Assembly: GCA_000025185.1 (NCBI GenBank) | Contig: CP001848.1 | Location: 1,560,001 to 1,592,000 of the forward strand | Direction of reading: 5' to 3' | Length of the DNA: 32,000 nt | Origin: Pirellula staleyi DSM 6068 | GTDB lineage: Bacteria; Planctomycetota; Planctomycetia; Pirellulales; Pirellulaceae | In this document: positions 5,331-13,160 of the stretch, piece after piece | How the letters are laid out: the number at the start of each line of letters is the position of its first letter | Numbering within the stretch: the first letter of the stretch is position 1 | Notes under the pieces: generated by a model | Told to the model about the DNA's origin: nothing | Seen by the model: the letters and a program-made list of their open reading frames with translations, nothing else | Databases searched by the model: none | Program-made: the position numbers and the translations under genes

Positions 5331-5481
5331 GACAACCTCAACTTGCGGGTAGTGGGATGGGAGACAAAACCGATCTGCGGGATCTGCGACGGAGGATGGC
5401 TGAGGGAATTTTGCCAAGTACCGGTCAGACAGTATGTCGAGGTGACTGGCGGGTGTCTTGCCCGAAACGTGGGCCGCCAGT

Positions 5482-5517
5482 CGATTTTGCGCATAGAGGC
5501 CCGATTTTCGCGATTTT
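5482..5517. promoter_or_regulatory. Three direct CGATTTT repeats in a divergent promoter region (candidate AraC-type operator)
   Basis: CGATTTT at 5482, 5502 and 5511, between the metallophosphoesterase operon and the PAS-AraC gene. The first two copies extend to CGATTTTGCGC and CGATTTTCGCG and lie 20 bp apart. Confidence 0.3.
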
Positions 5518-5589
5518 GGAGTCGGTTGGGAGGCTTATTTTCGTGCGTGGTCAATCGAACTGTGGGGACGCTTGGGGTAGGCTACAGAA

Positions 5590-6321
5590 ATGTCCCATTC
5601 GCTTCTTCATAGCGTCCTTGCGCAGCTCGCCGAGCCCTTCACCGGGGAGATGATTTTTGATGCGCTGTCGGATGTCGTTTTCTTCTTGAAAAACGATCAG
5701 GGGCAGTATGTGCTGGTGAATCAAACCCTCGCCATGCGCTGCGGCATGAGCGACAAGCAGTCGCTGCTGGGCAAAACGGCGGCCGATGTCCTGCCGGCTC
5801 CTTTGGGGCACAATTGTTTGGAGCAAGACCGGCGCGTGATTACTTCGGGAGTGCCGCTGCTGAACGAGCTCGAGCTGCATCTCTACCCCAGTGGCGATGA
5901 AGGGTGGTGTCTGACGAACAAACTTCCGCTGCGTGGGGTCGGGGAAAAGTGCGTGGGGCTTGTCGGTTTCTCGCGCGATTTGCATGCCCCGACCGAAGAC
6001 TATCGCGATGTGGCCGAGGCACTGCGGAAGGTGCAAACGCGTCTCGAGCAGCCGATGACGGTCGACGATGTCGCCAAACTCGCGGGGCTCTCGACGTTTC
6101 AGCTCGACCACCGCATTCGCGAAGTGTTTCACGTTTCGGCAAGTCAACTGATGCTGAAGTTTCGACTCGACCGGGCGACGCAGCGGCTGCGCGACACCAT
6201 GCTGCCGATTGCTCACATCGCGCTCGAAATTGGCTACGCCGATCAAAGCAGTTTCACGCGGCAATTTCATCGGACGATTGGGCTGACACCAGCCGAGTAT
6301 CGCAAACGCTATCAGGCGTAA
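5590..6321 (+). CDS. AraC-family transcriptional regulator with N-terminal PAS-like sensor domain
   Basis: 243 aa. The C-terminus has an AraC HTH (IALEIGYADQSSFTRQFHRTIGLTPAEYRKRY). The N-terminal ~130 aa look PAS-like (FFLKNDQGQYVLVNQTLAMRCG...). Confidence 0.85.
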   Translation: MSHSLLHSVLAQLAEPFTGEMIFDALSDVVFFLKNDQGQYVLVNQTLAMRCGMSDKQSLLGKTAADVLPAPLGHNCLEQDRRVITSGVPLLNELELHLYPSGDEGWCLTNKLPLRGVGEKCVGLVGFSRDLHAPTEDYRDVAEALRKVQTRLEQPMTVDDVAKLAGLSTFQLDHRIREVFHVSASQLMLKFRLDRATQRLRDTMLPIAHIALEIGYADQSSFTRQFHRTIGLTPAEYRKRYQA

Positions 6322-6479
6322 AACGCTCGCCGCCGAAATTTCTGTAACGCCCATGACGGGGCGTGCATCCAAAGAGGTGTTGGCAGGCCGATTCCTGCCC
6401 CCATGGCTAGAGGGCAGATCGGCGCGACAGCCGCGTGCTCGATGCCCTAGAAAATCTTCTTAGAACAAGCGAAATTCGG

Positions 6480-6779
6480 ATGAAAATGCAGCTTCAAAAC
6501 GTCGTTCGTGGTGGCATTCTCCTGGCGAGCATCGTGCTGCTGGCCGGTTGTGGTTCGTCGGCTCCTGCCGGTGGGACAGCGGGTGGCGCAGGGGGCGAAA
6601 CGATGGAAGGCTCGGGGATGATGTCAGCCGAACCTGCCATGGGCGAGGGGATGATGTCGGAAGAGAAGCCGATGATGAGCGACAAACCCATGATGGAAGA
6701 AAAGGCCATGATGGAGGAGAAACCGATGATGGAAGAAAAGCCTGCTGGTGAAAAAATGATGGCCCCCGCGAAACCGTAG
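6480..6779 (+). CDS. Small methionine-rich lipoprotein (MM-doublet repeat protein)
   Basis: The track ORF starts at GTG 6435. ATG 6480 gives a canonical lipoprotein signal, MKMQLQNVVRGGILLASIVLLAG|C. The mature part has 16 Met in about 76 residues, no His and no further Cys. It contains KPMMSD/KPMMEE/KAMMEE/KPMMEE repeats. Confidence 0.7.
   Translation: MKMQLQNVVRGGILLASIVLLAGCGSSAPAGGTAGGAGGETMEGSGMMSAEPAMGEGMMSEEKPMMSDKPMMEEKAMMEEKPMMEEKPAGEKMMAPAKP
6666..6737 (+). repeat. Four in-frame 18-bp tandem repeats encoding K(P/A)MM(S/E)(D/E)
   Basis: aagccgatgatgagcgac / aaacccatgatggaagaa / aaggccatgatggaggag / aaaccgatgatggaagaa, followed by a degenerate fifth unit. Confidence 0.85.
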
Positions 6780-6890
6780 TGCGATCTCGCGCTGCGTCAT
6801 TTGCTTGCAAGCCTCACGGTACGAGCCTCTCCCGGGCGACTGGTCACCTGAAGTGACCGATCGCTTACCTCGATCAGTGGACGAGCGATC

Positions 6891-7463
6891 ATGCAACGAC
6901 GAACTTTTCTCGAGGCAGCCGCTGCGACGGTCGCCATCGGCGTAGCAGCTTGTATGCATCCGGCAGACGCGCTGGCTGGGGATGTTCCGCTAGCTCGCGC
7001 GTATCGAGCGCCGGAGCTCGCCGAGATTGAAAAATTCTTTCATACGAAAGCGAGTTCGCTGAGGGAATTCCGGGGCCAAGTGGTAGCGCTCCATTTCTGG
7101 ACCTACTCCTGCAGCAACTGCCTGGCGAACTTGCCGCACTACGCACGGTGGCATCACGATTTTGCCGCAGCGGGGCTCGTGGTCCTGGGAGTACACACCC
7201 CTGAATTTTCGGAAGAAGCGAAAATCGAGAACGTTGCTGAGCAGCTACAAGCACTGAAGATCGAGTATCCTGTGGCGATTGACAACCAGTTTGCTACGTG
7301 GAAGCAGTGGAAGAATCGTTACTGGCCGACTGTCCATTTGATCGATCGTCGGGGGGATGTTCGTGCCACTTGGATTGGCGAGCTGAACTGGAAAGCGTCG
7401 CGCGGCGAAGTGACCATGCGATCGCGTATCGAGGCGCTGCTCAAAGAGCAGCGCGACAGCTGA
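6891..7463 (+). CDS. TlpA/redoxin-like thiol-disulfide oxidoreductase with Tat-type signal
   Basis: 190 aa. MQRRTFLEAAAATVAIGVAA signal. Thioredoxin-fold CxxC in FWTYSCSNCLANLPH. VLGVHTPEF and YWPTVHLIDRRG are typical of the TlpA/ResA-like family. Confidence 0.8.
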   Translation: MQRRTFLEAAAATVAIGVAACMHPADALAGDVPLARAYRAPELAEIEKFFHTKASSLREFRGQVVALHFWTYSCSNCLANLPHYARWHHDFAAAGLVVLGVHTPEFSEEAKIENVAEQLQALKIEYPVAIDNQFATWKQWKNRYWPTVHLIDRRGDVRATWIGELNWKASRGEVTMRSRIEALLKEQRDS

Positions 7464-7526
7464 CCCTCCGGTAGCAACCTTATTCACCCCACCCCGAGTA
7501 GCTTGATGTCGCGCTAGGCACTTCGT

Positions 7527-7862
7527 ATGGATTGCTCGAAATTCTACGAGAAAATCGACGAACTTCGCGAAAAGAAACTTTCGCGATGGGAGTGGATTTC
7601 GATGCGCCTGCACTGGCTGATTTGTGGCGACTGTCGCCGCTATTTGGCGCAGTACCTGAAGACGATCGCCATCGCGCACGGTCTGGCGGCGGCGGAATTG
7701 CCAGCTGCGAAATTGGCCGATCCGATCGTCGAACAAATCGCGCGTGAAATGACGCAAGCGGTGAGGTCGGGCGATGCGCCGCAAGATCCAGCGTTTGATC
7801 CAGCGAGCGATCGCGAAGAGGACTCGGATCAGTCAGGCTCGGAGGGGCCGCAGTTAACGTAG
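7527..7862 (+). CDS. Soluble zinc-finger (ZAS, HxxxCxxC) anti-sigma factor candidate
   Basis: 111 aa. MDCSKFYEKIDEL...RLHWLICGDCRRYLAQY gives C3, H29-x3-C33-x2-C36, the same Cys-to-His spacing I recall for RsrA-type ZAS proteins. No hydrophobic segment. Acidic disordered C-terminus. Confidence 0.6.
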   Translation: MDCSKFYEKIDELREKKLSRWEWISMRLHWLICGDCRRYLAQYLKTIAIAHGLAAAELPAAKLADPIVEQIAREMTQAVRSGDAPQDPAFDPASDREEDSDQSGSEGPQLT

Positions 7863-8091
7863 TTGTTTATCGATCACTCGATGGACCCGTAGCACTCGGT
7901 CTAGCGATCCATGTCAGGTGTTTTTGGGTGCCACTGGCGTCACGCCAGAGCAGCAGATGGAACCGATGTTTTGGGCAAAATGTCCCTGAAAACAGAGTCC
8001 ATTTACACTTCTCACTGGGGAGAGCCCAGTGGCACACTGGATTGAAGCCTTTTCATTGCTGCATGACATTGATTGCTAGACGGAGTAGTAG

Positions 8092-8117
8092 GTCAGGTCC
8101 CCTCTCAGGGACCTGAC
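8092..8117. terminator. Perfect 10-bp-stem hairpin between convergent genes (terminator-like, no U tract)
   Basis: gtcaggtccc (8092..8101), ctctca loop, gggacctgac (8108..8117). Lies between the ZAS gene (+) and the ECF sigma gene (-). Confidence 0.35.
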
Positions 8118-8201
8118 ACGAGAGGAGCATGGCACCCAGGCTCAACCCAGGTTTGGGCCAGTTTGCGATTCTGGTCTGGTAGAACCGGACCTACTACCAA
8201 G

Positions 8202-8864
8202 CTACGCGCTGCTCCCCTTCATCAGGGGCGTAAGGAGTGTGCGAAGCGCAGCACGCGCGCGATGCAGCCGCGTTTTCACTGCCCCTTCGCTGATTTCAAG
8301 GATGCGAGCCGTTTCAGCGGTGTCGAGTTCCTCGAGATCGCGCAGTAGTAAAATGCTCCGAAAATCGTCCGGGAGTCGATCGATGCACGAGCGGACTTGC
8401 TCGCGCGACTCTTCACTGCAGAGGAGTTCGAGCGGGCTCCGTTTCCAAGCGAGAACACCCCCCTGATGATGACCGGTGGCGTCGAAATGGGGGAGCAGCT
8501 CGTCGAGGCTCACTGTGGGTCGCCGCCGATTTTTCCGGAGCTTCATCAGACAGACGTTCACCGCAATGCGGTGGAGCCAGGTGCCGAGTTCAGCCTCGCC
8601 TCGAAAGTTGCCGAGGCCACGCGCTGCGGCGACAAACGTATCCTGCAGCGCATCGGCGGCATCGTCGTCGCGCCCGAGCATGCGCCGCGCTACGGCCAGC
8701 ACCTGCGCTCCATACTGGCGCACGAGCTGCTCGCTCGCCGCGCGGTCTCCACTGGCTATCGCGCGGGCTAGCTGCTGCGGTTCTCGATCGAGATCCCCTC
8801 GGCTCACAGCAAAACCCTTGGCAGAACTGACGAGCGACAGCAGATCGGTGCGAGAGGGGACCAT
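8202..8864 (-). CDS. ECF-type RNA polymerase sigma-70 family factor
   Basis: 220 aa. Region 2 (DALQDTFVAAARGLGNFRGEAELGTWLHRIAVNVCLMKLRK) and region 4 (LPDDFRSILLLRDLEELDTAETARILEISEGAVKTRLHRARAAL). Confidence 0.85.
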   Translation of the reverse strand: MVPSRTDLLSLVSSAKGFAVSRGDLDREPQQLARAIASGDRAASEQLVRQYGAQVLAVARRMLGRDDDAADALQDTFVAAARGLGNFRGEAELGTWLHRIAVNVCLMKLRKNRRRPTVSLDELLPHFDATGHHQGGVLAWKRSPLELLCSEESREQVRSCIDRLPDDFRSILLLRDLEELDTAETARILEISEGAVKTRLHRARAALRTLLTPLMKGSSA

Positions 8865-9117
8865 CGAGATGGCGGCATGCGATCAGGCCCTACGTGAAGT
8901 TAGTCGAAGCGCGCAACGCCGTTTTCCGCTGAGGATACGACGTTTCCTAACCTTTGGATGCACAAGCTCGCCCAGAATTACAGCAATTTCCATTGTACAT
9001 TTCCTGTCGCCTCGTAACCTGTCATGATGCACGGATATCTAAGAGAAGAGCCACCCTCGGAAAGGTCCCTTTCTCTCGAGCGTGTGCCATTGCAGCACGT
9101 TTTTAGGCGTTACTTCC

Positions 9118-10107
9118 ATGAGTCAGTTATTACCCGACGATCAGCAGCAGTTAGAGCGCGAGGTGACCCCTCCGGAGCTCTATTTCTCACGTCGTAAGTT
9201 GCTCCAAGGAGCTGTCCTCGCGGGGACGCTGGTCGCCACCGGCGGCATCTATCGCGCGGCGTCGCATTCCGAGGAAGAGAAGGTCTCGAGCGAAGGGGTG
9301 ATCGAGCAGCTGGCCCGTCCCGATCAGTTTTCGGCCAGCGCTCTCGGACCCAGTGATGAACTGACCCCCGAAGAAACGATCATCAACTACAACAACTTCT
9401 ACGAATTCACGACCAGCAAGCAGGGCGTAGCGCGACTCGCACGCGATTTTCGCACCGACGGCTGGTCGATCAAAATCGATGGGCTTGTCGATAAGCCGCA
9501 AACGATTTCGCTCGACGATTTGATGTCGCTCGGTCCGGTCGAAGAGCGAATCTATCGCATGCGCTGCGTCGAAGCGTGGTCGATTGTGGTCCCTTGGGCA
9601 GGCATTCCACTCCATCGCTTGCTCGAAAAAGTTCAGCCGCAGTCGACTGCCAAGTATGTCGCGTTCGAAACCCTGTTTGATCCCGTGCGTATGCCGAATC
9701 AAAACTCGGGAGTGCTAGACTGGCCGTATCTCGAGGGCCTTCGACTCGACGAAGCGATGCATCCACTCACGCTGCTGGCGACCGGGCTCTACGGCAAAGC
9801 GATGCCGCCGCAAGATGGTGCGCCGGTGCGGCTCGTCATTCCGTGGAAGTATGGGTTCAAAGGGATCAAGTCGATCGTCCGCATTTCACTCACTGCGACC
9901 GAGCCGGTTTCGACCTGGAACCGGATGGCGCCGTATGAGTATGGCTTCTACGCCAACGTGAACCCCGAGGTACCTCATCCGCGCTGGAGCCAGGCGACCG
10001 AGCAGCGACTCGGAGAATTTGGACGTCGCGACACGCTGATGTTCAACGGCTATGGCGAGCAAGTGGCATCGCTCTACGAAGGGATGAACCTGGAAGTCAA
10101 CTTTTAG
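9118..10107 (+). CDS. msrP: Periplasmic protein-methionine-sulfoxide reductase, molybdopterin catalytic subunit MsrP (YedY)
   Basis: Near-colinear with E. coli MsrP as I recall it ([77 protein letters not shown]). Tat signal [13 protein letters not shown]. The track ORF starts at GTG 9082; ATG 9118 is preferred. Confidence 0.9.
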
Positions 10108-10220
10108 TAGCGGCTGTTTTTCTGGAGAAATACAGCAGAAAACGGCCTTTGCAGTGTTCCTTCGCAATGTTCCTTCGCTTCGTCTCTTTGCCCACCTAGC
10201 AGCTTCTGAAATTTGATCCG

Positions 10221-11978
10221 ATGAACGAACTTCGATTCTGGAAACTTGTGGTGATTCTCAACAGCGGAGTTCCGCTGGCGATCTTGGCTTGGGATGCCGC
10301 GCAAGGTTCGCTCGGCGCGAATGCCGTGAGCTATGCCATTCACACCACTGGCTACCTCTCGCTCTTGATGCTGATGTTCTCGCTGATGGTGACACCACTG
10401 CGCTGGCTCACCGGCTGGAACAGTGTGGTGGGAATTCGTCGCGCGCTCGGCGTGTATGCCTTCATCTATGCCGCTGTGCATTTGGCGATCTATTTTACGT
10501 TCGATCGTCAGATGAGCCTCGTGAGCACCGCGACGGAAATCGCGTCGCGCGTCTATCTGATGATTGGCTTTGCCGCACTCTTGCTGATGGCACCACTGGC
10601 GCTGACCTCCACCAGCGCGATGGTGGTCAGGCTTGGCGCGAAGAACTGGAAGCTGCTCCATCGACTCACCTACGTCGTGGCGATTTTGGGAGTGCTCCAC
10701 TTCTACTTGCTGGTGAAGGCCGACGTTGGTGAACCTGTTAGTTTCGCTGCTTTTCTCGCGGTTTTGCTCCTCGCGCGAGTCGTTTGGCCCTACCTCGATC
10801 TCGCACCGCGTCGCAAAAAGATGCTCGCTAAAAAGAGCCTTTCAGCAGAGCCCATGAGCACCGCTGTCAGCACACAGCGCGCGAAGACCAAGGCTTGGAG
10901 TGGCGAACTGGTGGTCGCTTCGATCACGCGTGAAACGCCGAGCGTGCAAACGTTTCGACTACAGCCGATCGAAGGTGGAACTTTGCCGTTTGAATTCGAG
11001 CCGGGTCAATTCCTATCACTCGCGATCGAGATCGCAGGGCGACGTCAGCGCCGGAGTTACACCATCGCCAGTTCCCCTCTCGAGCGCACATTCTGCGAGC
11101 TCACCATCAAGCGCGAAGAGCACGGCACTGTCTCGCGACATCTGCACGACAATCTGCAGCCGGGCGATCGACTGACAGTCACCGCGCCAGCTGGAAAATT
11201 TGTTTTCAGCGGCAAGAGCGCTACGTCTGTTGTGCTGATCGCCGGCGGTGTGGGAATCACCCCGCTGATGTCGATGGCGCGGTACTTAGTCCAGACGAAT
11301 TGGTCGGGCTCGATCGATTTTGTAATCGTCGCCAAGAGCGAAAAAGAGCTGATTTTCCGCCGTGAAATCGAAGCGATGCAGCGCACTTTTTCGCGTCTGC
11401 AGATTCATATTACTCTGTCGCAGGAGATGGACGATTCGAGCTGGAGTGGGAAGCAAGGACGACTCGAAGCGACGTGGCTCTCGTCATGCTGCGCAGATCT
11501 TCGTACGCGGCCGATCTATCTTTGTGGTCCTGATGGAATGATGCAGCAGACGCGCGAAATGCTCCTCGCGCTCGGTGTTCCGCCTGCTAATCTGCACCAA
11601 GAGGCGTTTACTTCCTCGAGTGCTCGCGCCGAAAAAATGGAGCTCGCGCCGGTCGCTGCATCGGCCGCGCGCATGGAACCTGCGCTCCCGACGTTCCTGG
11701 TCGATTCGCCAAGCGCCGAGCATCAAGTGCAGTTCGTGCGGCAGCAAGTGGCGGCCGATGTGCGCGACGATATCACCGTGCTCGAAGCTGCCGAATCGCT
11801 CGGGGTTGCGATCCCCTACGAGTGTCGCGCGGGGGTCTGCGGGCAATGCAAAGTGCGGCTGACGCACGGTCATGTCGCGATGGATTCGCAGTCCGCGCTA
11901 TCACCGCAAGAGAAAGCTTTTGGCTGGATTCTCGCCTGCCAGGCGACACCTCGAACCAATCTCGAAGTCGAGGTGTAA
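10221..11978 (+). CDS. msrQ: MsrQ (YedZ, ferric-reductase-like haem b membrane domain) fused to an FNR-like FAD/NAD(P)H reductase and a C-terminal plant-type 2Fe-2S ferredoxin
   Basis: Residues 1-190 align with E. coli MsrQ, including His87/His147/His160 at the 60- and 13-residue spacing of its haem ligands. Residues ~226-465 carry RRSYTIAS (RxYS FAD motif) and GGVGITP (NAD(P)H motif). Residues ~500-585 carry C535-x4-C540-x2-C543-x29-C573. Confidence 0.85.
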   Translation: MNELRFWKLVVILNSGVPLAILAWDAAQGSLGANAVSYAIHTTGYLSLLMLMFSLMVTPLRWLTGWNSVVGIRRALGVYAFIYAAVHLAIYFTFDRQMSLVSTATEIASRVYLMIGFAALLLMAPLALTSTSAMVVRLGAKNWKLLHRLTYVVAILGVLHFYLLVKADVGEPVSFAAFLAVLLLARVVWPYLDLAPRRKKMLAKKSLSAEPMSTAVSTQRAKTKAWSGELVVASITRETPSVQTFRLQPIEGGTLPFEFEPGQFLSLAIEIAGRRQRRSYTIASSPLERTFCELTIKREEHGTVSRHLHDNLQPGDRLTVTAPAGKFVFSGKSATSVVLIAGGVGITPLMSMARYLVQTNWSGSIDFVIVAKSEKELIFRREIEAMQRTFSRLQIHITLSQEMDDSSWSGKQGRLEATWLSSCCADLRTRPIYLCGPDGMMQQTREMLLALGVPPANLHQEAFTSSSARAEKMELAPVAASAARMEPALPTFLVDSPSAEHQVQFVRQQVAADVRDDITVLEAAESLGVAIPYECRAGVCGQCKVRLTHGHVAMDSQSALSPQEKAFGWILACQATPRTNLEVEV

Positions 11979-12028
11979 GCAGTGGTGCGCGATGGCCTGC
12001 GTTTGATTTTCGCAGCTTCTTTCGCAGC

Positions 12029-12475
12029 CTATTTCGCTTCTTCTTTGGACTCGGGCGGTGCTGCTTTTGCTGCGGCGAGCGGCTTCCCTTCCACGGTCTT
12101 CACCCCGTCGCGCGCGACCGAGACGATGACGTAGCGAAATCCAGGACGTAAGTCGCGCGTCGCGAGTCCGAGGACTTTCAAGTCACCCTCGTCGGTAAGT
12201 CTGACAGTCACACGCAAGCGACTCCCCGAGGTGGTTTGCACCACAACCAGTGCTTTCTCGAAGTCGACCTTCGGCGTTTCGCCAGCGAGCTTCCACGCTT
12301 TCCAAAGTTCCTCGAATTCCTGGGGAGTGCTGATCGCGGTCGAAAACTTTCCCAGCAGTTCGGCATCTTCTACCGAACCGCTGAAGGTCATCAGAGGCTC
12401 GAGCGTTTTGTCTTCCGCCACAGCCGACGACCAGGTGATCCCGAGGAGCAAAAGTGCGAGTAGAGCCGTGCGCAT
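12029..12475 (-). CDS. Hypothetical secreted protein
   Basis: The track ORF extends to 12634. ATG 12475 gives a Sec signal, MRTALLALLLLGITWSSAVA|EDK. No recognised domain. Lys/Glu/Ala-rich C-terminus. Confidence 0.5.
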   Translation of the reverse strand: MRTALLALLLLGITWSSAVAEDKTLEPLMTFSGSVEDAELLGKFSTAISTPQEFEELWKAWKLAGETPKVDFEKALVVVQTTSGSRLRVTVRLTDEGDLKVLGLATRDLRPGFRYVIVSVARDGVKTVEGKPLAAAKAAPPESKEEAK

Positions 12476-12719
12476 GACATGAGTTCCTGAAGGGAGAAGC
12501 GTGGGAAGCGACCGATAAGCAGCAAGCGATGAACGCTGGCAAAAACTCTCTGCGAGCACGTTTCCAATCTTACCGCGCGTCGAGCGAATGGCTGTTAGCG
12601 ACGACGTGACAGATGGGTCTCGCTGCTCAGTCAAGTAGAGACGATGCGGCCGAAGGAAAGGTTTTCAGAGGAGGAGCCGAAAGCGATTTTGTCAGGAGAA
12701 TCTGCTCCGCTTTAGGACT

Positions 12720-13160
12720 TTAGGCCTCTTCGCCCCGCGCTGCCAGGCAGGCGATCAGCTTGCGCAGCAAGCGCGCCATGGCATTGCGATCGGCGGAGGA
12801 GAGATCGTCGTAAAGTGCGGTCACCGCGCCATGTTCGCTCGACAGCAGAATCTGCTTGCAGACCGATTTTCCGTTGGGAGTGAGGTGAATCATCGTCGCC
12901 CGCCGATCGGTGGGGTGAGCTGCACGGAGCACCAGCCCCTCTCCTTCCAGGGCATCGACCAGCTTGGTGATACTGCGTGGAGTTACGCCAAGTTGCACGC
13001 CGAGGTCGCTCATTTTCAGCGATCCCTCGCAGCTCAGGGCCAGCAGCAAACGGGCTCGGGCGGGAGTGGTGCCGGTGTGCTCGAGCTGTTTGGCTAGCCA
13101 GCGTGTGTAGGCTTTTCCAAAGCGTCCCATCATGGCAGCGAGCTCAGCAGAGTCGGTCAT
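12720..13160 (-). CDS. MarR-family transcriptional regulator
   Basis: 146 aa. Winged-helix block MSDLGVQLGVTPRSITKLVDALEGEGLVLRAAHPTDRRATMIHLTPNG. AAGGAA Shine-Dalgarno 5 nt upstream of the ATG. Confidence 0.85.
   Translation of the reverse strand: MTDSAELAAMMGRFGKAYTRWLAKQLEHTGTTPARARLLLALSCEGSLKMSDLGVQLGVTPRSITKLVDALEGEGLVLRAAHPTDRRATMIHLTPNGKSVCKQILLSSEHGAVTALYDDLSSADRNAMARLLRKLIACLAARGEEA

Follow-up and report, generated by a model that had tools for sequence, protein, structure and literature searches.

A methionine-rich lipoprotein of Pirellula staleyi, a probable lipid-anchored oxidant sink serviced by MsrP

A 32,000 bp stretch of the genome of Pirellula staleyi DSM 6068 (contig CP001848.1, positions 1,560,001 to 1,592,000; the window) was analyzed around a small gene at 6480-6779(+) encoding a lipoprotein that is about one-fifth methionine. 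This protein is probably a lipid-anchored, disordered scavenger of reactive chlorine or oxygen species in the planctomycete envelope, sacrificial and rechargeable by analogy with MrpX of Azospira suillum PS. MrpX is encoded by yedY1Z1-mrpX in the SigF/NrsF regulon and was proposed to be a sacrificial sink for hypochlorous acid (HOCl) that is recycled by a reductase (PMC4436054). The window system is most likely of the MrpX type in function, judged by the same analogy, and a lipoprotein version rather than a new kind. The original prediction had offered two readings, an MrpX-like methionine sink serviced by the methionine sulfoxide reductase MsrP and a binder of Cu(I) or Ag(I). The first is favored by the composition of the protein, by analogues adjacent to msrP and by a shared promoter motif. 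The second has no contextual support because nothing copper-specific is present in the window.

Sequence and composition of the lipoprotein

The translation is MKMQLQNVVRGGILLASIVLLAG followed, after the predicted cleavage point, by CGSSAPAGGTAGGAGGETMEGSGMMSAEPAMGEGMMSEEKPMMSDKPMMEEKAMMEEKPMMEEKPAGEKMMAPAKP, giving a mature N-terminus of CGSS. The signal region consists of a positively charged n-region, a hydrophobic core and the lipobox LLAG/C. LAGC occupies residues 21-24 and agrees with the canonical pattern [LVI][ASTVI][GAS]C, and residue +2 is Gly. These features point to export by the lipoprotein route, not by signal peptidase I, and to acylation at Cys24.

The mature part (76 amino acids from the Cys) contains 16 Met (21.1%), 13 Glu, 12 Gly, 10 Ala, 8 Pro and 7 Lys. 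There is no His and the sole Cys is the lipid-attachment Cys. Charged residues (D/E/K/R) account for 27.6%. Seven MM doublets hold 14 of the 16 Met and are spaced 6 residues apart (MM-x4-MM), without MxM or MxxM spacing. The lipobox, the 16 Met in about 76 residues, mostly as MM, and the lack of His and of extra Cys had all been described beforehand and were borne out by the translation. Background Met in the long stop-free segments of the window is 1.9%, at which the probability of 16 or more Met in 76 residues is ~8e-13. The open reading frame (ORF) was the single outlier among 281 stop-free segments, with 14.8% Met against 6.6% in the next.

Four 18-bp tandem repeats had been proposed. The 18-bp repeat is present and in frame, but it is imperfect and amounts to 4.7 copies according to Tandem Repeats Finder, which gives 69% matches for a period of 18 and 83% for one of 36. 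Translated, the units are EEKPMM, SDKPMM, EEKAMM, EEKPMM and EEKPAG. Between units there are 10 synonymous and 9 non-synonymous codon changes, and Lys and the MM doublet are retained in four of four repeat units. An AlphaFold2 single-sequence model showed helix only at the signal peptide (residues 4-22), the rest being coil with a pLDDT of 53-65. The mature domain is accordingly modeled as intrinsically disordered.

The gene was confirmed as real, as first described. The window is 98.6% identical at the nucleotide level to contig DLHC01000004.1 (GCA_002483025.1), and likewise to a pair of metagenome contigs. All three near-identical contigs carry a call for the gene, with a length of 97 amino acids, a start corresponding to window position 6486 and one residue different. 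Three of the four strain nucleotide differences within it fall at third codon positions.

A word-indexed search of 5.8 billion clustered proteins gave zero relatives of the Met-rich protein. Exhaustive phmmer against 1.84 billion representatives returned six long proteins with EKP/EQP-like repeats and nothing else. These six were rejected as compositional matches only, their repeats being free of Met. Pfam and NCBIfam contain no family for the protein, the sole match being the lipoprotein signal region of LptM, and the curated 'MXKDX' naming models match neither the window protein nor the planctomycete analogues described below. No alignable similarity to MrpX or to BcrX of Brucella melitensis was detected. 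Absent homologues are expected for this class, and sequence similarity discriminates weakly within it, because the authors of the MrpX study stress that MrpX itself is without sequence conservation.

Positional analogues in msrP loci

Eighty loci around MsrP relatives (52-63% identity) were sampled from species-representative genomes and every ORF was scanned for Met density. Ten Met-rich exported proteins were found, nine of which share the strand of msrP and are encoded at most 1.6 kb upstream of it (binomial P ~4e-11). Seven of the ten are lipoproteins of planctomycetes. They contain 17-22% Met and D/K-rich repeats, for example KMMKDD which, like KPMMEE of the window protein, is a hexapeptide containing an MM doublet. 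They belong to Schlesneria (L003, L006), Mariniblastus (L012), Planctomycetia (L013), Pirellula (L023), Limnoglobus (L033) and Pirellulaceae (L056). Met-rich lipoproteins were carried by 7 of the 17 sampled planctomycete msrP loci, with upstream sequence too short to judge in two of the 17, and all Met-rich msrP-linked proteins of these loci have a lipobox. Beside msrP or a related molybdoenzyme, planctomycete lipobox analogues with 17-23% Met occur in nine loci other than the window. The lipobox was present in 9/9 (VSGC, FVGC, ISGC, AVGC, ATGC, LTGC, FTGC). Mature lengths across the analogues vary from 36 to 130 residues. Lipid anchoring of such a sink had been considered unusual. This holds relative to the published proteobacterial examples, but lipid anchoring of Met-rich msrP-linked proteins is recurrent in Planctomycetes.

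In the window the gene directly downstream of the Met-rich gene encodes a thioredoxin-fold protein (Tlp). In L013 the Met-rich lipoprotein, Tlp, msrP and a fused msrQ gene are contiguous on one strand. Schlesneria locus L003 has a DUF1223 protein with a CSSC motif (9046-9876, +) between the Met-rich gene and msrP, the slot taken by Tlp in L013. The verrucomicrobial loci L026 and L019 contain non-lipoprotein Met-rich versions. The L019 protein, from Udaeobacter (6010-6705, +), has a KMMNDGKMM... segment fused to a peroxiredoxin-like domain. Anaerolineae locus L076 (60-1532, -) encodes a lipobox and AMMEEKPEEAM... fused to a TlpA-like CxxC domain, and CcdA follows. Such fusions of Met-rich and thioredoxin-fold parts are rare, since none of the 120 closest Tlp homologues has a Met-rich N-terminal extension.

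Annotated MrpX-type genes were also sought on plasmids by way of MsrP. The matches in Azospirillum, Klebsiella and Sinorhizobium had no Met-rich neighbor. A tblastn search for MrpX-type genes with the low-complexity query gave zero matches.

Tlp homologues are found directly upstream of msrP in L013, L076 and L077, and adjoin msrP or a molybdenum (Mo) oxidoreductase in L013, L076, L077, L088, L089, L091 and L092. A search of genome and metagenome contigs for related loci by Tlp returned nothing; loci L088 to L094 were obtained by a Tlp protein search followed by context look-up. L088 has the same synteny as the window, with identities of 61% for Tlp, 69% for the sigma factor of extracytoplasmic function (ECF) type and 74% for MsrP. 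Its Met-rich gene is cut off because the contig starts at Tlp. The planctomycete locus L089 (3759-9148, GCA_022841705.1) and L090 encode a secreted protein of 130 residues with 32% Met and MMM runs. Next in this cluster come a Spond_N protein, msrP and the fused msrQ, then Tlp and a protein of 184 aa from the chlorite dismutase family, and a two-component system is adjacent. The chlorite-dismutase-family neighbor in L089 fits the published association, in which chlorite dismutase (Cld) regularly occurs together with methionine sulfoxide reductase (Msr) systems and is frequent in Planctomycetes (PMC9751292).

Gene order in L091 and L092 is STAS protein, ECF sigma factor, Met-rich lipoprotein, cytochrome b, Mo-oxidoreductase, Tlp and SpoIIE, with a zf-HC2 (ZAS-type, zinc-binding) anti-sigma factor and MsrB farther on. 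The Met-rich lipoproteins of these two loci have 22-23% Met and the mature N-terminus CGSS, as in the window, and directly precede the cytochrome b/Mo-oxidoreductase pair. In L093 the ECF gene (-) is divergent from anti-sigma and Tlp genes. The recurring set is this ECF group, a ZAS anti-sigma, Tlp and a Met-sulfoxide reductase, often with a Met-rich exported protein.

In L091 (3995-10138), L092 (650-6097) and L094 (4255-7555), related ECF sigma factors (54-57% identical) follow a small STAS protein and occur with a SpoIIE phosphatase, an arrangement that suggests an additional partner-switching input. An HvfC-family gene adjoins the ECF sigma gene in L094, and a CsrA gene adjoins Tlp.

Shared promoter-like element

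The bipartite motif tGTAACc-N15-17-gCATCyAA was found upstream of the Met-rich gene, the ECF sigma gene and msrP. The element GAAATTkCTGTAAy-N13/14-GTGCATCCAAAG is common to the 158-nt region 5' of the Met-rich gene and the upstream region of the ECF gene, and is oriented alike with respect to each gene. The two elements match at 24 of 25 positions, a level reached by 0/300 dinucleotide shuffles, and their common 12-mer was reached in 4/2000 shuffles. The relaxed pattern GTAAY-N17-18-ATCYAA has three matches in the 32 kb (Met-rich gene, ECF gene and the msrP site) against 0.03 expected, a count that is weak alone because the pattern was designed after the third, msrP, site had been seen. In L088 GTAACC-N16-ATCTAA is present 105 nt upstream of msrP, and the ECF gene has the related element GAAAT-N17-ATCTAA at the same relative place.

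The strict form GTAAC-N15-17-GCATCYAA occurred 7 times in 1.28 Mb of non-redundant loci, compared to 0.25 in shuffles. It is confined to the window or to loci with an ECF sigma factor 41-57% identical to that of the window. With one exception, L091 15153-15180, which is inside the 3' end of the preceding gene, the sites are intergenic and closely precede a gene of the same strand. One site is upstream of the Met-rich gene of the window. L092 has two, before the Met-rich lipoprotein gene and before the anti-sigma and msrB genes; L091 has two, before the DM13, anti-sigma and msrB genes and before a GMC oxidoreductase gene; L093 has one before the anti-sigma and Tlp genes, and L056 has one. Directly upstream of the Met-rich lipoprotein gene of L091 there is a close variant, TTCTGTAACC-N14-GGCATCAAA, in which ATCAAA replaces ATCYAA. 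The motif is read as the probable promoter of this ECF group.

The strict site in L056 precedes a 498-aa ORF (6932-8440, +; the start is likely internal) with an N-terminal CxxC...CxxC cluster and a short Met-rich stretch, VMMSSNDMMKPD. This ORF may be another member of the regulon.

A sigma-70 consensus scan predicted no promoter near the Met-rich gene, and the gene has no recognizable Shine-Dalgarno sequence. The marbox consensus of MarA/SoxS, compared by eye, does not fit the shared element.

Proposed mechanism

The Met-rich operon, msrP and the NAD(P)H-linked MsrQ fusion most likely form one oxidative-stress regulon, as read from the motif and the gene context. Thiol-oxidizing stress such as HOCl would inactivate the cytoplasmic ZAS anti-sigma, to judge from its conserved C and HxxxCxxC ligands. 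Once released, the ECF sigma factor would transcribe three units: msrP with the fused msrQ, its own gene, and the operon encoding the Met-rich lipoprotein, Tlp and anti-sigma. The positions and conservation of the motif are observed, and they are consistent with promoter activity at these genes. The lipobox suggests that the lipoprotein is exported, acylated at the Cys and held at the membrane surface. Its 16 exposed thioethers would, as for MrpX, be oxidized to methionine sulfoxide ahead of essential envelope proteins. MsrP would re-reduce the sulfoxides with NAD(P)H electrons delivered by the fusion of ferredoxin-NADP reductase (FNR), ferredoxin and MsrQ parts, whose domain architecture is observed and whose electron path would follow from it. 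The co-transcribed Tlp is probably a parallel cysteine-repair arm. It must have another client because MsrP is a molybdoenzyme and needs no thiol reductant. The co-transcribed anti-sigma would close a negative feedback loop.

The inducing signal, promoter activity, lipidation, oxidation and MsrP-dependent recycling are drawn by analogy from MrpX, BcrX and C3568 of uropathogenic Escherichia coli (UPEC). The genes mrpX, bcrX and c3568 are co-regulated with msrPQ-type genes and are HOCl-induced (PMC4436054, PMC8315932, PMC8550376). Induction of MrpX by chlorite or hypochlorite is 20-60 fold, and the peptide is oxidized by HOCl (PMC4436054). The 21% Met of the window protein compares with 20% in MrpX and 17% in C3568.

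Several findings weigh against a sink of the MrpX type. The Met-rich protein has no homology to MrpX or to any protein, and composition and context form the link. Its charged fraction is 28% compared to 44% in MrpX. A distance of 2.3 kb separates the gene from msrP, and the two belong to different transcription units. Just 7 of the 17 planctomycete msrP loci carry a Met-rich lipoprotein gene, which makes the lipoprotein an accessory part. The msrP promoter match came from a pattern relaxed post hoc, and a different regulator, for instance the PAS-AraC protein encoded beside the gene, could bind at the shared element. Met-rich sequences are also ligands of Cu(I) and Ag(I), and in E. coli MsrP has a connection with copper homeostasis (PMC9302797).

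If the proposed function is true, MsrP-recycled sacrificial methionines would reach from a few Proteobacteria to Planctomycetes, with analogues seen in Verrucomicrobia and Chloroflexi, and would be a widespread envelope defense rather than a speciality of perchlorate reducers and pathogens. The membrane-tethered form would suit cells with large or leaky periplasms and place the sink beside the membrane-bound reductase. There would be a defined regulon (ECF sigma, ZAS anti-sigma and promoter motif) linking MsrP, MsrB, Tlp and, in relatives, chlorite dismutase, and with it a way into the sensing and survival of reactive chlorine species by environmental planctomycetes. A practical benefit would be better annotation of many small 'hypothetical' low-complexity genes beyond homology search.

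A more specific model is put forward tentatively, as being rather doubtful. Here the Met-rich lipoprotein, MsrP and FNR-ferredoxin-MsrQ would act as a membrane-organized NAD(P)H:hypochlorite (oxidant) reductase, with tethered poly-Met as redox mediator next to the reductase. It would be switched on by an undescribed planctomycete ECF/ZAS regulon (promoter GTAACC-N16-GCATCCAA) that also deploys periplasmic thioredoxin, MsrB and, in some lineages, chlorite dismutase.

Alternative explanations

A buffer or chaperone for the soft metals Cu(I) and Ag(I) is unlikely. The MM-x4-MM array would bind Cu(I) at the membrane, and MsrP would merely keep the ligands reduced, as for CusF. TlpA-type thioredoxins generally act in copper-center assembly, which was counted in favor of a metal role. 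So were the HvfC-family gene beside the related ECF sigma gene of L094, as NCBIfam names HvfA of the same system a ribosomally synthesized and post-translationally modified peptide (RiPP) metallophore, and the MGGM/MxxM-like motifs of the analogue in L026. Met-rich segments recruit Cu(I) in CueO and CusF (PMC11494321, PMC9302797). E. coli MsrPQ is copper-induced and repairs CusF, the Met residues of which are MsrP substrates (PMC9302797). CusF, CueO and CopA/PcoA resemble the window protein in the high Met density of an exported flexible segment, but their motifs lie within folded copper proteins or beside copper operons and usually contain His or MxM/MxxM. The window protein has no predicted fold, no His, neither of these spacings and no copper gene in its vicinity. 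The annotations of the 32-kb window include no gene specific to copper (P-type ATPase, multicopper oxidase, CusF/CopZ or similar), and none was seen among the called genes of L088-L094. The only efflux system of the window is a generic AcrB/ACR_tran resistance-nodulation-division (RND) pump with a fusion protein and an outer-membrane factor; the fusion protein also matches CusB/HlyD barrel-sandwich models. The recurring partners, MsrP, MsrB, chlorite-dismutase-family and thiol-redox proteins, all belong to oxidant defense.

Quite improbable is a dual role, in which the tethered Met array would scavenge oxidants and transiently bind Cu(I), protecting the envelope when copper and oxidant stress coincide. 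Scavenging and Cu(I) binding are chemically compatible, with MsrP connecting them in E. coli, and the contextual evidence for a sink fits a dual role equally well. Its metal half has no independent support, however, and it is less parsimonious.

The oxidation state of the protein might instead report the envelope oxidant load, or the protein might titrate MsrP, as a regulatory sensor or decoy. Location in the same operon as the anti-sigma and beside the PAS-AraC regulator, and the STAS/SpoIIE partner-switching modules or two-component systems nearby in other loci, are in keeping with this. The anti-sigma has no membrane or periplasmic part, which leaves no obvious route from a periplasmic lipoprotein, and the repetitive, fast-evolving sequences of variable length (36-130 mature residues) suit a bulk chemical role better. 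A sensor or decoy is very unlikely.

A spurious ORF, or non-functional low-complexity sequence produced by repeat expansion, would agree with the absent homologues, low complexity and unrecognizable Shine-Dalgarno sequence, but is hardly credible given the canonical lipoprotein signal, the gene calls on independent assemblies, the third-position bias of the strain differences (3/4), repeat units that vary synonymously while keeping KP-MM-EE, positional analogues in at least nine other planctomycete loci and the conserved promoter motif upstream.

Comparison with known systems

MrpX and the window protein are both small exported proteins with ~20% Met and many charged residues; both are predicted to be unfolded, and neither is conserved in sequence. 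Each has a YedY/MsrP-YedZ/MsrQ system linked to it in the genome, together with an adjacent pair of ECF sigma and anti-sigma factors. MrpX is soluble and periplasmic with an ordinary signal peptide, whereas the window protein has a lipobox. MrpX is co-transcribed downstream of yedYZ, whereas the window gene most likely heads a separate operon with Tlp and the anti-sigma. The regulator of MrpX is the ECF16 factor SigF with the membrane anti-sigma NrsF; in the window there is a 111-aa soluble ZAS-type anti-sigma and a different ECF, whose control is suggested by the motif. The window host, a planctomycete, is unlike the host of MrpX. Compared to described MrpX-type systems the window system also differs in its MM-doublet hexapeptides and its NAD(P)H-linked MsrQ.

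BcrX is an 'MXKDX repeat protein' encoded by bcrXQP with BcrS/AbcS (PMC8315932). Like the window protein, BcrX and C3568 are Met-rich and encoded with MsrPQ-type reductases; they are oxidant-induced and aid resistance to HOCl or peroxide (PMC8315932, PMC8550376). The Brucella promoter has GTAACC followed by a CGAA-type -10, compared to GTAAC(C) followed by GCATCYAA in the window. C3568, from UPEC strain CFT073, contains 17% Met in 60 mature residues. It has a signal peptidase I site (AQA/A), single Met in MxKD-like units, 4 His, 2 Cys and two-component control, in contrast to the MM doublets in KPMMEE hexapeptides, the lack of His and of Cys beyond the lipid-attachment Cys, and the probable ECF control of the window protein.

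The SigR-RsrA system likewise has a small soluble anti-sigma with C...HxxxCxxC beside an ECF sigma factor controlling thiol and Met-repair genes, and the anti-sigma gene is apparently under its own sigma factor, giving feedback. The likeness of the window is at motif level, and its sigma and anti-sigma genes are convergent, not co-transcribed. In Trx-MsrAB (PilB) of Neisseria and pneumococcal CcdA-Etrx-MsrAB2 (PMC13488963) genes for Met-sulfoxide repair in the envelope occur together with that of a thioredoxin-fold protein which is exported or lipid-anchored, as in the window. Unlike these modules the window has no CcdA/DsbD gene; in L076, CcdA accompanies the fusion of a Met-rich segment and a TlpA-like domain. 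Literature searches of incomplete coverage turned up no account of MrpX analogues that are lipoproteins, nor of this regulon in planctomycetes.

Gene neighborhood in the window

The features of the window are listed in Table 1. The window also encodes DUF1559 with an N-terminal methylation motif, which, taken with the closest MsrP relatives, points to a planctomycete. The pair msrPQ lies 2.3 kb downstream of the Met-rich gene on the same strand, with three genes between, one of them on the opposite strand. MsrP had been described as neighboring; it is in the neighborhood, but msrP is not the immediate neighbor. The Met-rich gene most likely heads its own operon of Met-rich lipoprotein, Tlp and anti-sigma, and is not in the msrPQ operon.

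Table 1. Coordinates of features in the window
Feature	Position	Strand	Remarks
PAS-AraC family regulator	5590..6321	+	Pfam PAS_4 and HTH_18/HTH_AraC; directly upstream of Met-rich gene
Candidate ECF-type promoter, Met-rich operon	6335..6374	+	GAAATTTCTGTAAC-N14-GTGCATCCAAAG; core GTAAC-N18-ATCCAA at 6344-6372
Met-rich lipoprotein gene	6480..6779	+	99 aa; alternative start 6486
Signal peptide	6480..6548	+	translation, model
Lipobox Cys codon	6549..6551	+	translation, model
Predicted disordered mature domain	6549..6776	+	translation, model
In-frame 18-bp tandem repeat	6659..6742	+	(E/S)(E/D)K(P/A)MM units; Tandem Repeats Finder; direct-repeat family D1
Hairpin with T-rich tail overlapping stop codon	6775..6796	+	terminator-like site
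Thioredoxin-fold protein (Tlp; DipZ C-terminal/TlpA/ResA type)	6891..7463	+	Pfam AhpC-TSA, Thioredoxin_8, Redoxin
Soluble zinc-binding (ZAS-type) anti-sigma	7527..7862	+	111 aa; C3, H29-WLI-C33-GD-C36; without membrane segment
ECF sigma factor	8202..8864	-	Pfam Sigma70_r2 and r4_2; convergent with anti-sigma gene, divergent from msrP
Candidate autoregulated promoter, ECF sigma gene	8952..8990	-	GAAATTGCTGTAAT-N13-GTGCATCCAAAG
Candidate ECF-type promoter, msrPQ	9014..9042	+	GTAACC-N17-ATCTAA
msrP, periplasmic molybdenum methionine sulfoxide reductase	9118..10107	+	NCBIfam NF003767, 452 bits (cut-off 207)
MsrQ heme-b domain fused to FAD/NAD(P)-binding and 2Fe-2S ferredoxin domains	10221..11978	+	Pfam, NCBIfam
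Small exported protein without family match	12029..12634	-	just downstream of msrQ
MarR-family gene	12720..13160	-	just downstream of msrQ

NCBIfam matches of the PAS-AraC regulator are limited to the generic HTH domain, and the gene is conserved in L081. Tlp has the CxxC motif WTYSCSNC. It may be a Tat-exported lipoprotein, as the twin-arginine (Tat) motif MQRRTFLE is followed by VAAC, a possible lipobox. Its best solved relative is the C-terminal domain of Mycobacterium tuberculosis DipZ (1e-32), with the PilB Trx domain and pneumococcal Etrx also found. No CcdA/DsbD electron donor is encoded in the window.

The anti-sigma matched NCBIfam NF052368 below the curated cut-off (E 7.7e-10, 38.5 bits against 50). 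Its H-x3-C-x2-C motif and upstream Cys ligand are those of ZAS proteins, and the four ligand positions are kept in the L088, L091 and L092 homologues. Sequence search gave no solved homologue of it. The ECF sigma factor is 69% identical to its relative in L088, 57% in L091, 55% in L094, 54% in L092 and 53% in L093.

The msrP product has the Tat motif SRRKLL. Although the reading frame extends back to GTG 9082, ATG 9118 is the likely start, judging by the gene call in L081 (329 aa) and alignments of relatives that begin after residue 13. The MsrQ fusion matches Pfam Ferric_reduct, FAD_binding_6, NAD_binding_1 and Fer2, and NCBIfam MsrQ with 145 bits against a cut-off of 130. The same fusion was found in ~20 of the 80 msrP loci, mostly of Planctomycetes and of metagenome-assembled genomes labeled Myxococcota. 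From its domains it could be a single polypeptide resembling NADPH oxidases (NOX) that passes electrons of cytoplasmic NAD(P)H straight to MsrP. No MsrQ-FNR-ferredoxin fusion of this kind was found by literature search.

The hairpin overlapping the stop codon of the Met-rich gene may be a partial terminator or attenuator letting the sink transcript exceed that of the downstream genes. Terminator-like sites in the region are no more numerous than in shuffles, so the hairpin is only suggestive.

Nested long inverted repeats occur in the 339 nt (7863-8201) that separate the convergent genes of the anti-sigma and the ECF sigma factor, and this spacer folds with -144 kcal/mol (z = -5.6 against shuffles). 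Its strain identity is 94-96% compared to the 98.6% average. The possibility of an RNA gene was set aside because the flanking genes are better conserved between strains. An Rfam scan of 5400-12800, the spacer included, gave nothing meaningful.

The order of the small exported protein and the MarR-family gene downstream of msrQ is kept in L088, and a tie of these genes to the oxidative-stress cluster is possible.

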